From positions 151 to 64,150 of the forward strand of contig JAYVNP010000119.1 in NCBI GenBank assembly GCA_043758385.1: a stretch of DNA of 64,000 nucleotides, read 5' to 3'. Shown here one piece after another: positions 41,215 to 50,843 of the stretch. Source of the stretch: Saprospiraceae bacterium (GTDB taxonomy: Bacteria > Bacteroidota > Bacteroidia > Chitinophagales > Saprospiraceae). Numbering within the stretch: position 1 is the first letter of the stretch; each line of letters begins with the position of its first letter. Below the pieces are notes generated by a model. It saw nothing but the letters and a program-made list of their open reading frames with translations. It had not been told where the DNA came from and did no database searches. The position numbers and the translations under genes are program-made.

Positions 41215-41412
41215 ATGGAAAACACATTATTGATAGAAATTACTAATCCAAAAGTATTAACCCTCTTACAAGATTTAGAGGAACTTAAACTCATTAAAGT
41301 GCTAACAAAAAAAATACCTAATCCCAAATCAAAGCTTTCTGAGAAATATAGAGGCGTACTTTCAAAGCAAACAGCTGACAAAATGAGGACACATTTCATT
41401 ACAGAATTTTGA
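41215..41412 (+). CDS. Small antitoxin-like protein with no adjacent toxin
   Basis: EITNPKVLTLLQDLEELKLIKV..KLSEKYRGVLSKQTADKM resembles small Bacteroidota proteins that usually precede RelE/HigB-type toxins. This is from memory, not a search. Confidence 0.3.
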   Translation: MENTLLIEITNPKVLTLLQDLEELKLIKVLTKKIPNPKSKLSEKYRGVLSKQTADKMRTHFITEF

Positions 41413-41446: not shown

Positions 41447-42604
41447 TTATTTTGTTGGTAGTATTAATTTTTGCTTTAAATTTTTACCGAAAATTTCGGT
41501 ATGAATTTTCTCATTATTTAAATCAGAAATAATTTTTTTTATAGACTTTTGTGAGAAAACAACTTTTCTATTATTATTAATAGAGTCAAAATTCTCTATC
41601 CAAATATATTCATCAAATTTAGGGTTAACAGTATTTTCTTCAGGGTTTTCGACTTTAAATTTTTCGTCATTAACCCAACCCAAATGTCTCATAACAATTT
41701 TTAAATGTAAATTGTTAATAGCATATTTGCAATCCTTCACAACCTCTTTCTCTAGAGTTGTCATTAAAATATAGTCTTTTCGTGTAGAAATTTCACCAAC
41801 TATTTTATATAGGGGCTTACCTGCATCATTTGAAATTTTACCAATTTCACCTGCTGAAATTGCGTTTAAAATAACATTAAATACACCATTCTTACTTTTA
41901 TCTATTTCAATTTCACTGCTTGACAGAATATTGTCCTTTCCATTAAAACCATAAATTTTATTATTTTTTGGGCTAATAATTAAAACTTCTCTAGGATTTA
42001 TATTAAATATTTCTGGAAGTAGTTTTGACCATATCTCCATAAATTCTTTTTTCTTTTCATCCGCTTTAATTTGCAAAAAATTGTTGAATTCTTGTGTTGT
42101 GTCATTTGCAACTGCATTTTTACCTGAAGTCCTATATATTATTTCACCTTTTTTAATATTATATTCTTTAAAATCTAATTTTGGTATTAAGACTTGATTT
42201 TGTTTAGCTACCAAAAGATAATAAAATTCCTTTGTGCCCACTTGGAACTTTTGTAAGTCAATGCTTACATTCAGTCCAACTATTTTTTCAAATTTTTGAT
42301 TAACTAAGTTTAAATCTATACTACTCAATAATTGGAGGTTTTTATCATCCAAACCTACTTCTATATACTTTCCAGTTACTTTATTTTCCTCAAATCCCAA
42401 TAGAATTATTCCGCCGTTTCCATTACAAAATGACAAGATATCTTTTGCAAAATTTTTTAAAAAGATTTCTATTGGATTTTCATCACCAGAAAAATTTAAT
42501 TTCAATTTATAGTCATAAAGGTCGTTTTCTTTCGGTAAATTTCCAGTATTTTTAAAATTATCGATTATATCTTTAATTTTAATTTGTAAATCTTGTAGCG
42601 TCAT
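41447..42604 (-). CDS. AlbA_2 (Schlafen-type, divergent AAA_4) domain protein with an uncharacterised C-terminal half
   Basis: YDYKLKL......FAKDILSFCNGNGGIILLGFEE..GK..EVG..; later IYRTSGKNAVA, the typical AlbA_2 pattern. ATG at 42604 preferred. Confidence 0.5.
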   Translation of the reverse strand: MTLQDLQIKIKDIIDNFKNTGNLPKENDLYDYKLKLNFSGDENPIEIFLKNFAKDILSFCNGNGGIILLGFEENKVTGKYIEVGLDDKNLQLLSSIDLNLVNQKFEKIVGLNVSIDLQKFQVGTKEFYYLLVAKQNQVLIPKLDFKEYNIKKGEIIYRTSGKNAVANDTTQEFNNFLQIKADEKKKEFMEIWSKLLPEIFNINPREVLIISPKNNKIYGFNGKDNILSSSEIEIDKSKNGVFNVILNAISAGEIGKISNDAGKPLYKIVGEISTRKDYILMTTLEKEVVKDCKYAINNLHLKIVMRHLGWVNDEKFKVENPEENTVNPKFDEYIWIENFDSINNNRKVVFSQKSIKKIISDLNNEKIHTEIFGKNLKQKLILPTK

Positions 42605-43070
42605 AAATGTAAAAGTTGTCAAATTTTGATCCAACGAGAAGATATTGATGCCAGTGTAAAAACAGAATTCCATTTGCCCATAACCGAACTAATGAATGAA
42701 ATATTGTCAATATTTTATTCAAGAGCTAAATTTACAACTTACTGCTGAAACTAAAGCTCAATAGTAGCAAGAATGTTAACATTTTTCCACGACCTTCCAT
42801 TGGCAACACCAATGTTGGAGGCAATTTTAATTTTAAGCACTAAATTAAATTTAGGCCTCCAACATCAATTATATGTTTGTAGTTCAAATTGCCATACCAA
42901 AATTTGCGTAATAAATGTTTACACTTTAAGCGATTGAGAGTGTTATATTTGTATAAAAAAAGTGTGTGGTTGAAAAACAGGTTGTTCTAATAAAGCTGAG
43001 TTCAAAGGGGTTTACGCCTATTTTGAAAAAACTCCTCACGATAAATAAATGTATTGATTATTATTTTCCT

Positions 43071-43432: not shown

Positions 43433-44836
43433 ATGGATTACAGAATTGAAAAAGATACAATGGGCAAGGTGGAAGTGCCTGCCGATAAATATTGGGGCGC
43501 GCAAACGCAACGCTCGATAATGAATTTCCCCATTGCGCAAGATATTAATAAAATGCCGCGCGAAATTATAAAAGCGTTCGCTTATTTAAAAGCAGCAGCT
43601 GCACTAACCAATTTCGATTGTGGTGTTTTAGATGCGCAAAAGTGTCAACTCATCGGCGATGTGTGCAAAGAAATTATTGAAGGTAAACTGGATGATCAAT
43701 TTCCGTTGGTAGTTTGGCAAACAGGTAGCGGCACGCAATCGAATATGAATGTGAATGAAGTTGTGGCGTATCGCGCGCACGTTTTAAATGGCGGTTCGTT
43801 ATCGGATGAGAAAAAAATAATCAATCCGAACGATGATGTGAATAAATCGCAAAGCTCGAACGATACTTTCCCGACAGCGATGCACATTGCAGCGTATAGT
43901 ATTTTGATGGAAAAAACGATTCCAGGCATCACCAAACTGCGCGATACTTTGCGCGAAAAAGCAAAAGCGTTTGCACACGTTGTTAAAATTGGTCGCACAC
44001 ATTTAATGGATGCAACGCCGTTAACACTTGGTCAAGAATTTTCGGGTTATGCAGCACAACTTTCCCACGGATTGAAAGCGATTAATAATTCTTTGTCGCA
44101 TCTTTCCGAATTGGCTTTGGGTGGAACTGCCGTTGGAACAGGAATTAACACGCCGCCGAATTATTCAGAGAGGGTTGCGGCACATATTGCTGCACTCACA
44201 GGTTTACCTTTTATGACAGCCGAAAATAAATTCGAATCACTTGCTGCACACGATGCAATTGTTGAAGCACACGGCGCATTAAAAACTGTTGCGTGTTCGA
44301 TGATGAAAATTGCGAATGATGTGCGATTATTAGCATCTGGTCCGCGCGCAGGATTTGGCGAAATTTCTATTCCGGATAACGAACCCGGTTCGAGTATCAT
44401 GCCAGGCAAAGTAAACCCAACACAATGCGAAGCGATGACAATGGTTGCAGCGCAAGTTTTAGGTAATGATGTAGCGATAAATATTGGTGGTGCATCAGGT
44501 CATTTTGAGTTGAATGTTTTCAAACCGATGATGATTTATAATTTCTTACATTCTGCGCGTTTAATCGGCGATGTGTGCGACTCGTTTAACGACCGTTGCG
44601 CTGTGGGTATTGAACCCATTTACGCAAACATCGAAAAGCATTTGAACAGTTCATTGATGCTCGTAACAGCACTCAATCCGAAAATTGGATATTACAAAGC
44701 GGCTGAAATTGCACAAACGGCACACCGCGAAGGTGGCAACCTTAAAGATACTGCTATTAAATTGGGTTATTTGACTGCCGAAGAATTTGATGCGTGGGTA
44801 AAACCCGTTGATATGTGTGGAGAGATTAAAATTTAG
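43433..44836 (+). CDS. fumC: Class II fumarate hydratase
   Basis: [16 protein letters not shown] signature; end-to-end FumC layout. Confidence 0.96.
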
Positions 44837-44881
44837 GCGTGCTAAATGGGAGCAGAAAGAATAATTCTATTCTCGTATCAT

Positions 44882-45274
44882 TTAAAATGACATTGGCACA
44901 CCGTTTTCAAGCCACAATTTTTCATTTACAAAATCAATGCTTAAAATATGGCGACCACGAAAAAAATCGAGCCCTAAAATACAATCGTAAGGACTTAAAA
45001 CACCTTTGGCAATAAAATCGTAGGCTAAAACGATAAAATTTTGAAGACTATTGTCTAAAGTTGCGAATTGATTTAATGAAAAAAGTTGCGCTTCAATAAT
45101 GCCATTCGATGTTTCTAAAGTCACCCAATCTTTGCCATTTTCAGGGACATAACCAATCATCATAAGCATATTCCAATCTATAACAGTGTGCGTTGCTGCT
45201 GTATCAACGGCTAACCTAATGGGATAACCATCAATCAATGAATCTACAATAATAACACACCTCATCTGTTTCAA
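44882..45274 (-). CDS. Retropepsin-like (clan AA) aspartic protease, single-domain
   Basis: 130 aa with hydrophobic-hydrophobic-D-T-A-A-T (LAVDTAATHTVI) at the expected position and ILGLDFF near the C-terminus. Gly of the canonical DTG is replaced by Ala. Confidence 0.55.
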   Translation of the reverse strand: MKQMRCVIIVDSLIDGYPIRLAVDTAATHTVIDWNMLMMIGYVPENGKDWVTLETSNGIIEAQLFSLNQFATLDNSLQNFIVLAYDFIAKGVLSPYDCILGLDFFRGRHILSIDFVNEKLWLENGVPMSF

Positions 45275-45299
45275 GGCTAAAAGAATATTTTTTCATAAA

Positions 45300-45668
45300 C
45301 TATTTAGATATTCTCCGCATCAAACCTATACGCCTATGATTAGGGAATTCGCCCGTATAAAAATGATTAACATCTGGATATTGTCGAATGAGGTCTTTGC
45401 CTTTCAGCGCTAATTCCCGTTTGTCTGCCTCGTGAAGAAGAATTTTTCCACCTAAAATTTGTGTGCCGTTTTTGTGCGTGTAAGCTATTAATATCCATTC
45501 ATTAGGATGCATTTTTTTAATTTCCTCAGTTGTTATATATCCTTCAACAGGTGAACCAAAAATGGTATTACTGACGTTGTCTTCTTCGGAAAATGCTTTT
45601 ACAGATTGCACAAAATCTAAAGATTGCACAAAATCTAACAACTTCTGAATCTTTAAATTGAATGGCAT
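45300..45668 (-). CDS. Small partner protein of the retropepsin-like protease (DUF5678-like core?)
   Basis: 122 aa; ends 25 nt before the protease gene. EWILIAY..NGTQILGGKILLHEADKRELALKG resembles antitoxin-like DUF5678 (from memory). Contains a 6-aa duplication. Confidence 0.4.
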   Translation of the reverse strand: MPFNLKIQKLLDFVQSLDFVQSVKAFSEEDNVSNTIFGSPVEGYITTEEIKKMHPNEWILIAYTHKNGTQILGGKILLHEADKRELALKGKDLIRQYPDVNHFYTGEFPNHRRIGLMRRISK

Positions 45669-45868
45669 ACGTTGTTGACATTAACTTTTATTTTTAATGT
45701 TTATCGATACACAAATATATCCCTCTTTTATCGAAGAATAATTTTTTTACAAAATATTCTTCTTTTATTTCGTCGTTCATATTGAAAAACTTTCATTAAA
45801 TTCTAAAAATTTAATGTTCTGTTAAAATTGAAAACAAATATAGGTCGCATCTTTGTAGAATTATAAAA

Positions 45869-46792
45869 ATGTTAATGGCAAATAAAACCAGTTCAAAACG
45901 CAAAGTTGAAATAGTTGTAATCTCCGATACACATTTAGGCAGTGTAGGCTGCCATTCTAAAGAACTTGCCAACTATTTAAAAAGTATAAAAACGGAAAGG
46001 CTTATTTTGAATGGCGACATTATAGATATGTGGCAATTTAAAAAATCTTATTTCCAAAAATATGAGCTTTTAGTTGTTAATCGCATTTTAAAAATGTTAG
46101 CCAATGGCACTATCGTGTATTATCTGACGGGCAACCACGACGATATTTTACGTCGCTTCTCGGGATTTCAAAACGGCAATTTTTATCTGCGCGATCAAGT
46201 CGTATTTTTATTAAATGGCAAAAAACATTGGTTTTTTCATGGCGACGCATTCGATGTAGCGATGCTGAAAACGCGTTGGCTTTCAAAATTAGGCGGTACT
46301 ATCTACGATTGGCTCATCATGGCTAATAAATTTATCAATAAAATTACAGGATTTTTTGGCGCACCACCTATTTTTTTTGCTACACTCATTAAAATGGGAA
46401 TAAAAAAGGTTGTAAAATTTATTTCCGATTTTGAAGACAAAGCGATTGATGCAGCTAAAACAAATGGTTACGATGTTGTAGCGTGTGGTCATATTCACAG
46501 ACCAGCAATTGCTGAAAAGCAAAGCATTCTATATCTCAATTCAGGCGATTGGATAGAAAATTTGACGGCATTAGAATATAATGACGGCAAATGGACTTTA
46601 TTTAAGTATAACCCAAACGATTTTATTGACGCTGCGCCAAAAGAAAAAACCAAACCGACGGACGAAGACGCGCTCATGTCGCTTTCTCAAGAAGAATTAA
46701 TTAATAACTTTATAAATAAAAAACCAGCATTTGTATCTTTGCAAAGTAACGAAGCTGTTGAAAATAAATTTTGGGATGGCATTGAGCATTAA
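45869..46792 (+). CDS. LpxH-family metallophosphoesterase, PlcP-like by context
   Basis: ISDTHLG, NGDIIDMW, GNHD, HGD and GHIHRP calcineurin-like motifs. Confidence 0.7.
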   Translation: MLMANKTSSKRKVEIVVISDTHLGSVGCHSKELANYLKSIKTERLILNGDIIDMWQFKKSYFQKYELLVVNRILKMLANGTIVYYLTGNHDDILRRFSGFQNGNFYLRDQVVFLLNGKKHWFFHGDAFDVAMLKTRWLSKLGGTIYDWLIMANKFINKITGFFGAPPIFFATLIKMGIKKVVKFISDFEDKAIDAAKTNGYDVVACGHIHRPAIAEKQSILYLNSGDWIENLTALEYNDGKWTLFKYNPNDFIDAAPKEKTKPTDEDALMSLSQEELINNFINKKPAFVSLQSNEAVENKFWDGIEH

Positions 46793-46837
46793 AATAATCA
46801 TTCCATACTCTTTCTGATACATTAATAGAACCATACC

Positions 46838-47980
46838 ATGTCAAAAATTTCTAACTGGGTATTTAATAATGTCCATAATAATAACCTGATTTACAATACT
46901 TGTTGGGAAGATCCGCGTTGCGATCGCCAACTATTACAACTAAATAAAAAAAGCGAAGTTGTAATGATAACTTCTGCGGGTTGTAATGCACTCGATTATG
47001 CTTTGGATAATCCGTTTGCTATTAATTGTATTGATATGAATCACCGTCAGAATGCGCTGTTGCAATTAAAATTGTCTTCTATACAAAATACGGCGTTCAA
47101 CGATTTATTTAATATTTTTGGTGAAGGCGTTTACAAAAACGTTAACTCGATTTACAAAGACGTTTTGAGTAAAAATATGCCCGAATTTGCGCGACAGTAT
47201 TGGGATAAAAACATTAAACTTTTCAAAGGTAACGGCATTCGCAAATCTTTTTATTGGCACAGCACGTCGGGTAGTTTTGCTTGGTTGCTGCTAAAATATA
47301 TGCAATTTAAGAAATCGAACCGCATTGCGTTAGATAATATGTTCGCCTCGAAAAATATGGATGAACAACGCGAAAATTATTTCAGACTCGAACGCGGCAT
47401 CATAAATGATTTTATTAAATGGGTGATGGATTTACCGATTATTATGACGATGCTCGGCGTTCCAGCCAGTCAACATAAAATGGTTTCAAAAGATGATAGT
47501 GCCATTGGTTACATTATTAGTTGTTTGCGCCACGTTTTTGCTGAATTACCGATTCAAGATAATTACTTTTATTATCTGTATTTTACAGGAAGATACGATA
47601 CCAATTGTGCGCCGAATTATTTAAAAAAAGAAAATTTTGATATTTTAAAAGAAAATTCGCGTGCAATTTCTACACACACTACTACTTTAACAGGCTTTTT
47701 AAAAGAAAATCCAAAACCGTATTCGCATTTTGTACTTTTAGACCATCAAGATTGGTTGGCAGCTAACGATGTACCAGCATTGAATGAAGAATGGGAAACT
47801 ATTTTAAATAATAGTCAATCGGGTACACGCATTCTTTTACGCTCGGCAGCAAAAGAGATCAATTTTTTTCCTACATTTGTGAATGAACGCGTTGAGTTTG
47901 AAAAAGAACTCACTGCCATAACACACAAACAAGATCGCGTTGGTACGTATGCCAGCGTTTATTTAGGAATAGTAAAATAA
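46838..47980 (+). CDS. DUF3419-family protein (BtaA-like S-adenosylmethionine:diacylglycerol 3-amino-3-carboxypropyl transferase)
   Basis: N-terminal Y.TCWEDP..D...L, a SAM-binding-like TSAGCNALDY, and C-terminal VLLDHQDWL. Confidence 0.72.
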   Translation: MSKISNWVFNNVHNNNLIYNTCWEDPRCDRQLLQLNKKSEVVMITSAGCNALDYALDNPFAINCIDMNHRQNALLQLKLSSIQNTAFNDLFNIFGEGVYKNVNSIYKDVLSKNMPEFARQYWDKNIKLFKGNGIRKSFYWHSTSGSFAWLLLKYMQFKKSNRIALDNMFASKNMDEQRENYFRLERGIINDFIKWVMDLPIIMTMLGVPASQHKMVSKDDSAIGYIISCLRHVFAELPIQDNYFYYLYFTGRYDTNCAPNYLKKENFDILKENSRAISTHTTTLTGFLKENPKPYSHFVLLDHQDWLAANDVPALNEEWETILNNSQSGTRILLRSAAKEINFFPTFVNERVEFEKELTAITHKQDRVGTYASVYLGIVK

Positions 47981-48000
47981 ATTGAACCTGAAAAGTAATA

Positions 48001-48669
48001 ATGGAATCGAACACCAAAACCAATAATTTAGAACACGAAAAATCACAGCAAGCGCATCGCATAAGCAACTATTATAAATTACACGCCAAAATTTACGACG
48101 CGTCGCGTTGGTCGTTTTTATTTGGTAGAAAAACCATTTTAAAACTCATTCCTTTTAGTGCCGACGCAGCAATAAAAATTATTGAAGTCGGTTGCGGAAC
48201 TGGTATTAATCTGCAAAAATTAGCCAATCAATTCCCGAACGCTCAAATTATAGGTTATGATGTTTCAGGCGACATGATTAACGAGTCGAAAAAAAAAATA
48301 GATATTTTTGGCGACCGCGTACGACTGATTTGTGCGCCGTATGGCGATAACCTGAAAGCAGAAAGCGAAAATGCCGATTGTATTTTATTTTCTTATTGTT
48401 TAACGATGGTTAATCCGCAATACAACGAACTTATTGAGCGCGCACGCGTTGATTTAAAACAAAATGGTGTTATTGCCGTCGTAGATTTTTACGATTCAAA
48501 CTCTAATTTATTTAAAAACTGGATGGCAGTTAATCATGTCAGAATGGAACAACACCTTTCTCCGCATTTATTGCGCAACTTTATTACTGAGCAAAGTTTT
48601 ACGCATAAAGCATACGCAGGTTTGTGGCGTTATTTTTTATTTATTGGGCGTAAAAAGTTTGAAAGGTGA
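48001..48669 (+). CDS. Class I SAM-dependent methyltransferase (BtaB-like by context)
   Basis: IIEVGCGTGINL motif I; starts 20 nt after the DUF3419 gene. Confidence 0.6.
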   Translation: MESNTKTNNLEHEKSQQAHRISNYYKLHAKIYDASRWSFLFGRKTILKLIPFSADAAIKIIEVGCGTGINLQKLANQFPNAQIIGYDVSGDMINESKKKIDIFGDRVRLICAPYGDNLKAESENADCILFSYCLTMVNPQYNELIERARVDLKQNGVIAVVDFYDSNSNLFKNWMAVNHVRMEQHLSPHLLRNFITEQSFTHKAYAGLWRYFLFIGRKKFER

Positions 48670-48688
48670 GGTATTTCAATTTAAAAAT

Positions 48689-49417
48689 TTATAATTGCTT
48701 TTTCTCACGTTCTGTTTTATTCGGCGAGCGTATTTCAAAATTAAATCCCGATTCAACGTACTTATTGTATTTCTTTTCATCAAAAGCATACAGCAAAGCA
48801 GGTCTGTGTGCCATGCCTCGTTGCACCTCGTGCGCTTGCAAAATATCCATTTTCAAAAACTTAGTTCTAAAATTGCGCTTGTTGAGCCCAATTCCTAAGA
48901 TAGATTCGTATAGTTTTTGAAGTTGACTGAGCGTAAATTTTTGTGGCAATAATTCAAAACCAATCGGTTGATAGCGTACTTTTGAGCGTAACCTTTCAAT
49001 AGCGGTTTCAAGAATGATGTTATGATCGAAAGCCAAAGACGGAAGTTTTTCGAGCGAAAACCAATCCACGTCTTTAGAAGTAGTTTCAGATCCAATTTTA
49101 TGCTCTTCTAAATTAATAAGCGCATAATAAGCCACAGTTACAACGTGTCCGCGTGGATCGCGTTTGGGCGTACCGAATGTAAAAAGTTGTTCAATAAAAA
49201 TATCTGTTACGCCTGTTTTTTCTTCCAACTCACGCAATGCTGCAGCCTCAAGTGTTTCGGTTTCATTTACAAAACCGCCTGGTAAAGCCCACGCGTTTTT
49301 AAACGGATCGTTGTTGCGTTGAATAAGTAATACCTTTAAGCGACTCGAAGTATCTAATCCGAAAATGACGCAGTCAACTGTGAGCGTCGGTCGAGAAAAC
49401 TCATAAGTATAAGCCAT
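48689..49417 (-). CDS. NrtR-type Nudix hydrolase / winged-helix regulator
   Basis: Nudix box [24 protein letters not shown] plus a C-terminal wHTH region ([22 protein letters not shown]). Confidence 0.75.
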
Positions 49418-49599
49418 TAAAAATTAAATTTTTCTTATTTTTTAGTTGTTCAGTAAGCATTTTAAAACAAAAAAAAGTATGTGGTGTATTATGACTCCGC
49501 AAATTTCTTCTTTTCACGCACAAATATAAATTTAAGACGCATTGTTGCCTCAAAGAAAGACATAAAACTTGTTTTAAACGTTATTAATAAAATTATGCC

Positions 49600-50136
49600 A
49601 TGTTAAAAAGTTCAAAATTTTATTTTCTTTCCTCAATTTTAATTATCAGCCTTTCTTTACCTTGGCAAAATTATAAAAATGAAGTCGGTAAATTTTCGGT
49701 TTCCGTTCCAGCACCCGTGAAAGAAACAACATCGAAAATAAAAACGGTTACTGGCGAACTGATATATCATCAGTTTGTATGCAAAACGCTTTCTAAAAAC
49801 GATGGTAAAATTCTTTACACTATCAATTATTGCGATTATCCACCTGGTACTTTTCCGAAAGATTCAGCCGATTTACGCGAAGAATTTTATAGAGCGACGA
49901 TTGAATCATCAACCGAAGTGATAAAAGGAACAGTTGCATATCAAGATAATATTTTACAACAAGATTACAACGGTAAAATTTGGCGCGTTGATTTTAATAA
50001 AGAAACGGCGCATATTAAGAGTAAATGTTTCCTTATTGGCGATAGATTTTATTTACTTCAGATTATTGTTGCCAATAACGAAAAAAATGATCCCAATGCG
50101 GATAAATTTTTCGACACATTCTTTGTACAGTTGTAA
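49600..50136 (+). CDS. Hypothetical secreted protein
   Basis: Signal-like N-terminus; no recognisable domain. Confidence 0.45.
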   Translation: MLKSSKFYFLSSILIISLSLPWQNYKNEVGKFSVSVPAPVKETTSKIKTVTGELIYHQFVCKTLSKNDGKILYTINYCDYPPGTFPKDSADLREEFYRATIESSTEVIKGTVAYQDNILQQDYNGKIWRVDFNKETAHIKSKCFLIGDRFYLLQIIVANNEKNDPNADKFFDTFFVQL

Positions 50137-50179
50137 TTAAGCACCACTTTTGCGTGTTGTAAATTAAGAATTGAAATAA

Positions 50180-50665
50180 ATGAAAGTGTGTGTGTTTCCA
50201 GGTTCTTTTGATCCAATTACTTCAGGCCACGTTGATTTAGTGCGTCGTGCATTGCCACTTTTCGATCGTATTATTATTGCTATTGGCGTTAATAACGAAA
50301 AAAAATACTTGTTCAGTTTAGAGCAGCGCAAAGCGTGGATAAGTAAAGTATTTGAAAATGAGCGCAAGGTGTATGTTGATTCGTTTGAAAAACTTACTGC
50401 TGAATATTGCAAGCGCGTGAGTGCCCAATGGATTTTACGCGGTTTGCGCAACGCCAGCGATTTTGATTACGAAAAAACAATTTCTCAACTCAACTATATT
50501 GTCGGCGATGGCGTTGAAACGGTGTTTTTAATTTCTCAACCACAATTCTCACACATTTCATCAACCATAGTGCGAGAAATTATTCGCGGCGGCGGCGATG
50601 TATCGCCGTTTGTACCAGACATTCCTGAAATGAAAGAATTAAAAAATGAAGGAATAAAGAAATAA
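50180..50665 (+). CDS. coaD: Pantetheine-phosphate adenylyltransferase
   Basis: FPGSFDPITSGHVDLV and ISST.VRE motifs. Confidence 0.92.
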   Translation: MKVCVFPGSFDPITSGHVDLVRRALPLFDRIIIAIGVNNEKKYLFSLEQRKAWISKVFENERKVYVDSFEKLTAEYCKRVSAQWILRGLRNASDFDYEKTISQLNYIVGDGVETVFLISQPQFSHISSTIVREIIRGGGDVSPFVPDIPEMKELKNEGIKK

Positions 50666-50717
50666 CGAAAATCAAAATAGTAACGGCTCAAAAATGAATC
50701 ATTACTATTTTGATTTT
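50664..50717 (+). terminator. 16-bp-stem hairpin after coaD that runs into a T-rich hexamer tract
   Basis: aaaatcaaaatagtaa (50668-83) pairs with ttactattttgatttt (50702-17). Confidence 0.55.
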
Positions 50718-50843
50718 GATTTTCGTTTTGATTTTCGTTTTGATTTTCGTTTTCGTTTTCGTTTTCGTTTTGATTTTCGTTTTGATTTTCGTTTTGATTT
50801 TCGTTTTGATTTTGATTTTCGTTTTGATTTTCGTTTTGATTTT
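50712..50843. repeat. 22 uninterrupted hexamers drawn from only two words, GATTTT and CGTTTT (11 each)
   Basis: Order read directly: D D C D C D C C C C D C D C D C D D C D C D, where D=GATTTT and C=CGTTTT. Followed by attacttcttc-type repeats to 50880. Confidence 0.95.

Follow-up and report, generated by a model that had tools for sequence, protein, structure and literature searches.

The 64,000-nucleotide (nt) stretch of Saprospiraceae DNA analysed here, to which we refer as the window, carries on its minus strand two short open reading frames (ORFs) that a sequence-only reading had described as a two-gene module, a small DUF5678-like protein and a stand-alone retropepsin-like protease of clan AA lying 25 nt apart. 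We call the upstream gene A, or the partner, and the downstream gene B, or the protease. The coordinates of both ORFs were confirmed, but comparison with intact relatives identifies their boundaries as frameshift artefacts: the true A–B intergenic gap is 3 nt (TAG TTT ATG), not the 25 nt that separate the two remnants in the window copy. The features of the locus are as follows.

44863-45753, minus strand: whole cassette (promoter region, gene A and gene B), the sole stretch with DNA similarity to copies on other contigs
45712-45719, minus strand: TATATTTG box, invariant in five long-form loci and located about 31 nt before the ancestral ATG of gene A
45643-45681, minus strand: orphaned first 13 codons of the ancestral gene A (MSTTYAIQFKDSE), out of frame, seen by three-frame translation
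45650/45651: point at which 17 nt of gene A are deleted (placement uncertain by a few nt), from DNA alignment with L093, L094 and L001
45300-45668, minus strand: gene A remnant ORF (partner), 122 amino acids (aa), from the ORF list
45303-45338, minus strand: C-terminal tail of the partner (HRRIGLMRRISK), clade consensus R-x-IG-[IL]-[LM]-[KR]-[KR]-I
45261-45296, minus strand: orphaned first 12 codons of the ancestral gene B (MKKYSFSLETDE), with their ATG 3 nt past the gene A stop (TAG, 45300-45302)
45257-45259: 1-nt insertion near 45258 that frameshifts gene B past codon 12 (GAGG-AC in relatives, GAGGTGT here), from DNA alignments
44882-45274, minus strand: gene B remnant ORF (protease), 130 aa from a TTG or 127 aa from the ATG at 45265, from Pfam PF13650 and the family alignment
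45191-45205, minus strand: catalytic-loop motif D-T-A-A-T, with Ala for the canonical Gly, read directly
44981-44983, minus strand: GGT to TGT (Gly to Cys) at the near-invariant Gly of D-G-[ILV]-[LI]-G-L-D-F-F; GGT in L091, L092 and L093
44894-44896, minus strand: lost ancestral stop, TGA in the 92%-identical copies and CCA here, from DNA alignment

The window copy and its lesions

Intact homologues of the partner are 132-134 aa long (MSTTYAIQFKESE..., with the start MSTTYAIQFKESExxRIQKLLDFVQSLDFVQSV), as against 122 aa in the window, and intact homologues of the protease are 131-133 aa long (MKKYSFSLETDED..., with the start MKKYSFSLETDEDVIII), as against 130 aa. By three-frame translation we found that the window still encodes both ancestral N-termini, in other frames, from 45681 for gene A and from 45296 for gene B. 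The gene A remnant begins at a fortuitous internal ATG and lacks the first strand of an N-terminal extension domain; a hidden Markov model (HMM) of this domain matches two different frames of the window, which independently confirms that gene A is split. The extension is truncated, and the core of the partner (residues ~45-122) is intact, with a core HMM match at E 1.6e-24. Gene B has lost both its native start and its native N-terminal strand, and the loss of its ancestral stop adds four residues at the C-terminus (130 versus 126 aa), up to the TAA at 44882-44884.

An independently assembled contig from another public sequencing run (two samples) is 100% identical to window positions 44690-50742 (6,053 nt) and carries the same lesions, so the lesions are not a one-off assembly error. 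The ratio of nonsynonymous to synonymous substitution rates (dN/dS) between the window protease and that of the 92%-identical intact copy L091 is 0.15, only slightly above the values for pairs of intact copies, which indicates that the inactivation is recent. Because both genes are frameshifted, the pair in the window is most likely non-functional as a system, and the locus is better annotated as a disrupted cassette than as two intact genes. A further contig, L176, which derives from a different sequencing run and has 4 mismatches over 5 kb, stops at window position 45726, 27 nt inside the left boundary of the cassette (45726-45753); this end could reflect a strain-level polymorphism in the presence or the allele of the cassette.

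An alternative, implicit in the sequence-only reading, is that the window copy still works, with the 122-aa and the 127- or 130-aa ORFs translated from new starts, the partner core sufficing and the protease tolerating a shorter N-terminus. In-frame starts are available for both remnants, the well-preserved partner core corresponds to what most partners of the family consist of altogether (76-89 aa), the same allele occurs in at least two samples, and dN/dS to the closest intact copy is still low. However, such a protease would lack an N-terminal stretch of 12 residues conserved in every relative, along with the tight coupling to the gene A stop, and it would carry both the Cys at the near-invariant Gly and the read-through of the ancestral stop. 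Four independent lesions within 0.8 kb, relative to an intact copy that is 92% identical, are a signature of relaxed constraint, and similar decay of the protease is seen in other copies. We regard a working copy in the window as unlikely.

Conservation, context and mobility of the cassette

A motif-seeded scan of one genome per species yielded 313 confirmed relatives of the protease, and the best 80 loci were analysed. A partner homologue lies directly upstream on the same strand in 78 of these 80 loci (HMM E 1e-12 to 1e-70), the two others being L020, at a contig edge, and L075, a degraded copy. The usual arrangement is a 4-nt ATGA overlap, in place of which the clade of the window has the 3-nt gap. 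We found the same adjacency in the most distant protease relatives recovered (33-37% identity), as well as one intact copy in a cyanobacterium (L055). Values of dN/dS for both genes range from 0.03 to 0.20, indicating purifying selection. The cassette is widespread in Bacteroidota, with hundreds of genomes carrying it, and the pair is conserved as neighbours, a check that the sequence-only reading had itself proposed. The partner family is correspondingly large: a word-indexed search gave 871 matches, and the family comprises 545 representative clusters at 50% identity. No Pfam domain is annotated in any of the 120 best matches listed, and where a source name is given, which is seldom, it is nearly always 'hypothetical protein'.

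The position of the pair beside a convergent fumC and a divergent operon had been described as insertion-like, and this description held: only the cassette itself resembles other copies at the DNA level, between flanks that are unrelated. In blastn comparisons, the alignments to L091 and L092 (92% identity) cover 45479-44863 and that to L093 (84% identity) covers 45753-44897, with unrelated flanking genes in each case. The 137 nearest neighbours across the 80 loci fall into 117 sequence clusters, and the 123 neighbours that were scanned, mostly housekeeping genes, represent 207 Pfam families, none of which occurs more than three times. In L001 the cassette lies between a methyltransferase gene and polA, and four metagenome-assembled genomes (MAGs) hold two cassette copies each. 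Taken from such comparisons, the cassette appears to be an autonomous, horizontally mobile unit of about 0.9 kb. It also appears to carry its own promoter, since the conserved TATATTTG box fits the Bacteroidota -7 promoter consensus, TAnnTTTG.

Several contexts are of interest in their own right. At L003:3926-4728, and also in L004-L007, an intact cassette sits between the POR alpha/gamma gene and the gene for the thiamine pyrophosphate-binding beta subunit of a 2-oxoacid:ferredoxin oxidoreductase, normally one operon. At L094:1093-2662 the cassette is directly followed by a pair consisting of an NTP_transf_2 nucleotidyltransferase and a HepT-like protein (MNT/HepT), a known type of toxin-antitoxin system. 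A few neighbours are IS110, HTH_3, ORF6N, Schlafen/AlbA_2 or OLD/Gabija-like ATPase genes. Enrichment in defence islands was considered as support and rejected, no PADLOC family occurring more than twice among the 123 nearest neighbours.

Two sequence elements near the cassette edges were likewise discarded. The direct repeat AAGAATAATT (44857-44866 and 45734-45743) was considered as a target-site duplication, and a 10-mer of this kind is expected by chance in an AT-rich region of 1.1 kb. The palindrome at 45733-45762, a candidate operator, is not conserved in other long-form loci. In a comparison anchored on fumC in search of an empty site, identity among the 80 loci does not exceed 83%, and in none of them does the cassette have the neighbours seen in the window or sit beside fumC; gene order around the site is not maintained across the available genomes, so the polarity of the insertion is not demonstrable in this way.

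The genes that flank the cassette in the window are undamaged. The fumC gene (43433-44836; Lyase_1 and FumaraseC_C; 467 aa), convergent with both minus-strand ORFs, has an intact reading frame. On the other side, the divergent operon at 45869-48669 on the plus strand has intact frames for a metallophosphoesterase, a DUF3419 protein (E 9e-108) and an S-adenosylmethionine-dependent methyltransferase (307, 380 and 222 aa), and is followed by a NUDIX/NrtR-like regulator at 48689-49417 on the minus strand. The DUF3419 and methyltransferase genes presumably resemble the BtaA/BtaB genes of betaine-lipid synthesis, which would suit the label of a lipid operon given to them earlier. Beyond fumC, a 408-aa Schlafen/AlbA_2 protein (PF04326, E 3.4e-8) is encoded at 41447-42673 on the minus strand, in a stretch of very low guanine-plus-cytosine content (0.26-0.28, versus 0.42-0.44 for fumC), and may be a foreign or defence-type gene; the same domain was seen twice among the 123 cassette neighbours in other genomes. 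A nearby 65-aa ORF (MENTLLIEITNPKVLTLLQDLEELKLIKVL..., 41215-41412, plus strand) has no Pfam match and is superficially like the strand-helix N-terminal extension of the partner, but was rejected as a relative of it, as the N-domain HMM gives no match.

The protease, the partner and their relatives

The window protease matches Pfam Asp_protease_2 (PF13650) with 42.4 bits against a gathering score of 24.3 (E 1.2e-10, profile positions 5-90 of 90), which bears out its assignment to clan AA. It also matches gag-asp_proteas and contains the motifs LAVDTAATHTVI and ILGLDFF. Against the NCBIfam model TIGR02281 (clan_AA_DTGA), the window protease (27.5 bits) and its intact relatives (21.7-26.5 bits) all score under the cut-off of 57.95. 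Structure prediction was carried out on the intact homologue P0023 (93% identical), not on the window remnant. The AlphaFold2 (AF2) model has a predicted local distance difference test (pLDDT) score of 90.7 and the fold of a retropepsin monomer, as had been anticipated from the sequence. In a Foldseek search of the PDB its top match is the Rickettsia protease APRc (5c9f; E 1e-7, TM 0.72), with HIV-1 protease next. Among solved structures, the RVP domains of Ddi1 come closest in a profile-sequence search (E 2e-4).

The catalytic loop departs from the canonical D-[TS]-G triad: Asp and Thr are kept and the Gly is Ala. The sequence-only reading had noted this Ala correctly but had taken it as a reason to doubt activity. 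In our census of the family, 60 of 78 loops read DTAA[TS] and 15 of 78 DTGA[ST]; Asp and Thr are invariant in the family alignment. A large clade, itself under purifying selection, has DTA as its fixed form, which marks it as a trait of that clade and not as degeneration. A survey of endogenous retroviral proteases rates DTAAD as only 'potentially active' and holds that the residue at the Gly position must stay small (PMC6058741); Ala, being small, may be tolerated there.

Most partners of the family are composed of the core only, 76-89 aa with the pattern YP[DN]EWVLLGNP...VLGG.VL.HSKDK[KR]E...[YF][TA]G. The Saprospiraceae clade of the window has an extra strand-helix extension of about 45 aa with an SLDFV motif ahead of the core of about 80 aa. 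An 18-nt tandem repeat (45600-45635, minus strand) encodes LDFVQS-LDFVQS in this extension; the duplication is clade-wide (LLD[FY]VQSLDFVQSV) and is thus an internal repeat of the domain rather than a lesion. The AF2 model of the partner (pLDDT 76) places a single helix in the extension, followed by a disordered linker and then by the core, arranged as strand-helix-hairpin-helix-strand. We found no significant match to this model in the PDB by Foldseek (best E 0.38), nothing below E 0.5 on comparing the partner profile with PDB sequences, and no match of the window partner to Pfam (E <= 0.1), NCBIfam or PADLOC models. Neither the partner nor the protease has a hydrophobic, signal-like N-terminal stretch by inspection, in agreement with the earlier remark that both lack a signal peptide.

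The label 'DUF5678-like' was not borne out for the window protein in these searches. The window partner does not match DUF5678 (PF18929; gathering score 23.2 bits), and the intact partner P0001 does not match it at E <= 10. Among relatives, 1 of 8 and, in a set of distant members, 3 of 43 match at E 0.015-0.074, all under the gathering score; the sole bit score returned is 13.3 (E 0.074), covering 14 of 49 profile positions. DUF5678 nonetheless recurs as the top Pfam match of the relatives, at the W-V-L-[LI] strand with which the partner core begins, and a link between the two is marginal at the level of sequence.

The basic C-terminal tail of the partner is present as first described and conserved within the clade, but it is not universal in the wider family. 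In the intact partner the tail (residues 121-132) is predicted to be unstructured (AF2 pLDDT ~63-65, no secondary structure), and Gly125 is invariant in our alignment A4. The type of tail tracks the protease clade, NRKFWL occurring with DTGAS in 9 of 11 cases and the IGILKRI type with DTAA[TS] in 55 of 59. The most distant modules, L178:2777-3393 and L182:656-1335 (protease 33-37% identical), keep the partner core and have non-basic tails (...EETAVVL and ...DEDDEPLPVESEPGVA), which makes the basic tail clade-specific.

Both families are recognisable in a published catalogue of defence candidates. PDC-M08 (cassette CAS_00054, FAM_03167>>FAM_00414, 381 occurrences in RefSeq) is one of 145 'untested phage defence candidates' nominated through guilt-by-embedding in BREX, DISARM and type I restriction-modification (RM) loci (Payne et al., bioRxiv 10.1101/2024.01.29.577857). 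Its gene order, with A immediately upstream of B on the same strand, is that of the window, and the sizes agree (the A model has 86 positions and the B models 93-128, as against an A core of ~81 aa and a B of ~131 aa here). PDC-M08B is matched by 27 of 30 family proteases (best E 2.5e-9) and marginally by the window protease (E 1.7e-3). PDC-M08A is matched weakly by 19 of 34 (best E 1.2e-3) and 20 of 43 (best E 7.9e-5) family partners, and neither by the window partner (E limit 1) nor by the intact P0001 (E limit 10). Whereas the copies from which PDC-M08 was defined are embedded in BREX, DISARM and type I RM loci, those of Bacteroidota lie mostly among housekeeping genes; in the clade of the window, A carries an additional N-terminal domain and B reads DTA in place of DTG. 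These profile matches make the two families distant homologues of the candidate components A and B, and the window copy, by the same comparison, a divergent and decaying PDC-M08-like member, which PADLOC would probably not call.

Other known systems resemble the cassette in part. APRc/ApRick of Rickettsia conorii (PDB 5c9f) is a bacterial single-domain clan-AA enzyme and the best structural match to the modelled intact protease, but the identity is only 15-19%, and APRc (PMC4140852) is membrane-embedded and autoprocessing, has DTG and is not known to have a comparable partner gene. The Ddi1-type RVP domains (PDB 4z2z, 2i1a, 3s8i) can be aligned with the protease at the D-[ST]-G-A loop and at the [IL]-G-[LM]-D-x-[LF] helix motif, whereas the proteins themselves are eukaryotic multidomain ubiquitin shuttles with canonical DSG/DTG and no small partner gene. 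Pseudomonas RimB and RloA are bacterial stand-alone retropepsin-like enzymes in small operons; Rlo is reportedly secreted and shares its operon with genes for an ATP-grasp protein and an inactive transglutaminase (PMC11957051), whereas the cassette is mobile and its products are cytoplasmic by inspection. Like type II toxin-antitoxin systems (PMC4487406), the cassette consists of two small overlapping genes in the same orientation, the first of them presumed to be protective, and it shares with them mobility, a scattered multi-copy distribution and frequent decay. It differs from them in that no DNA-binding domain or operator was detected for the partner, so that classical type II autoregulation is not evident. 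In literature on DUF5678, on PDC-M08 and on retropepsins together with toxin-antitoxin systems or anti-phage defence, we found no aspartic-protease toxin-antitoxin or defence module.

Possible function of the intact cassette

Decay of the cassette is asymmetric between its two genes. A broken protease beside an intact partner core occurs in eight copies (L018, L038, L050, L057, L069, L087, L093 and the window), both genes are broken in one (L075), and the partner alone is broken in none. If lesions were proportional to gene length, eight protease-only losses out of eight would have a probability of ~0.02. In the copy at L050:4962-5400, another case of protease-first decay, the protease has DTD for DTG plus a C-terminal frameshift and the partner is intact. 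This asymmetry is suggestive of the protease being the costly component and the partner the protective one, and it speaks against the reverse polarity as well as against an obligate pairing of precursor and maturase.

In the mechanism that we propose, the protease, presumably a homodimer with one Asp contributed by each subunit, would be a harmful effector, and the co-translated partner would bind and restrain it, much as in toxin-antitoxin or abortive-infection systems. The most plausible contact would be the flexible, clade-conserved C-terminal tail of the partner, which would either occupy the cleft like a pseudo-substrate or add a strand where the subunits of the dimer meet; proteolysis would then be released when stress or infection removes or titrates the partner. 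The resemblance to such cassettes had already been remarked on from the sequence. The coupling of the genes, their mobility and variable contexts, the presence of several copies in some genomes, the homology to PDC-M08 and the recurrent decay fit it by analogy, but the frameshifted copy in the window is probably not a functional example of it. We consider the chances about even that the window holds a recently inactivated copy of a mobile cassette whose intact members encode an effector protease restrained by its partner. A fuller version, in which intact members form a new type of toxin-antitoxin or abortive-infection system with a cytoplasmic retropepsin-like toxin (DTA being fixed in the clade) held inactive by a small protein whose fold has no earlier annotation and whose clade-specific C-terminal peptide makes the contact, is tentative, and we think it doubtful as a whole.

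Several observations weigh against a restrained effector protease, or against the window copy being inactive. The neighbours of the cassette are mostly housekeeping genes, not defence islands; tblastn of both proteins against INPHARED phages and PLSDB plasmids gave no matches, and motif-seeded scans of IMG/VR gave no confirmed matches to the module. Pfam and PDB comparisons detected no DNA-binding domain in the partner, and the upstream regions of long-form loci contain no conserved palindromic operator. The putative contact peptide is not shared throughout, distant members ending in EETAVVL or in an acidic tail, and the Ala of DTA may, by analogy with the retroviral enzymes, reduce or alter catalysis. 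The asymmetry of decay rests on 8-9 cases, mostly from MAGs. With a dN/dS of 0.15, the remnant ORFs of the window, above all the partner core, could still be expressed and useful.

Retropepsins prefer hydrophobic residues at P1 and P1', and the partner tail has hydrophobic residues beside its basic ones. The partner could accordingly be a dedicated substrate whose tail is trimmed or from which a peptide is released, the processed product being the functional one, with no toxin-antitoxin logic. The strict co-occurrence and translational coupling of the genes agree with such a precursor-maturase pair, as does a tail that is conserved yet predicted to be unstructured and that co-varies with the protease clade. 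However, where the protease no longer works, the partner remains intact and apparently constrained (8 versus 0), which is unexpected if processing is needed; tails differ radically in distant members; and we found neither an export or modification gene among the scanned neighbours nor, by inspection, a signal peptide in either protein. A precursor-maturase pair is improbable on this evidence.

The pair might instead serve housekeeping, as an ordinary protease with its adaptor in regulated proteolysis, like Ddi1-type shuttles or RimB/Rlo, and be neither selfish nor defensive. The nearest solved sequence relatives, Ddi1 RVP domains and Rickettsia APRc, and the mostly housekeeping neighbourhood would suit this role, and bacterial retropepsin-like enzymes with physiological functions are on record (PMC4140852; PMC11957051). 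Against it stand the patchy distribution and non-syntenic context, the sharp DNA boundaries in different contexts at 84-92% identity, the four MAGs with two copies each, the recurrent pseudogenisation, and the homology of both genes to a cassette embedded in defence systems; nor is there an ATP-grasp or transglutaminase gene nearby, unlike in the rim/rlo operons (PMC11957051). We judge a housekeeping role quite improbable.

An origin of the frameshifts in sequencing or assembly errors, with intact 132- and 133-aa genes in the actual genome, is very improbable: although the window is apparently metagenome-derived, its related records are MAGs or read-set assemblies and single-base indels are a common error type, a 17-nt deletion is atypical as an error, the independent contig agrees across both indels, the neighbouring genes are intact, and the indels are accompanied by two substitutions (the lost stop and Gly to Cys).

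For a restrained effector protease, it is the family, and not the window copy, that merits experiment. If the full toxin-antitoxin version is true, the cassette would supply prokaryotic conflict systems with their first aspartic-protease toxin and be a free-living bacterial counterpart of the regulated retroviral protease. If the mechanism is true, aspartic proteases would join the effector repertoire of bacterial toxin-antitoxin and defence modules, and the conserved DTA would serve as a natural experiment in which the D-T-G loop does without its supposedly essential Gly. The PADLOC candidate PDC-M08 would, on the same condition, gain a testable mechanism and a large Bacteroidota branch, comprising hundreds of species genomes and mostly missed by current annotation resources.

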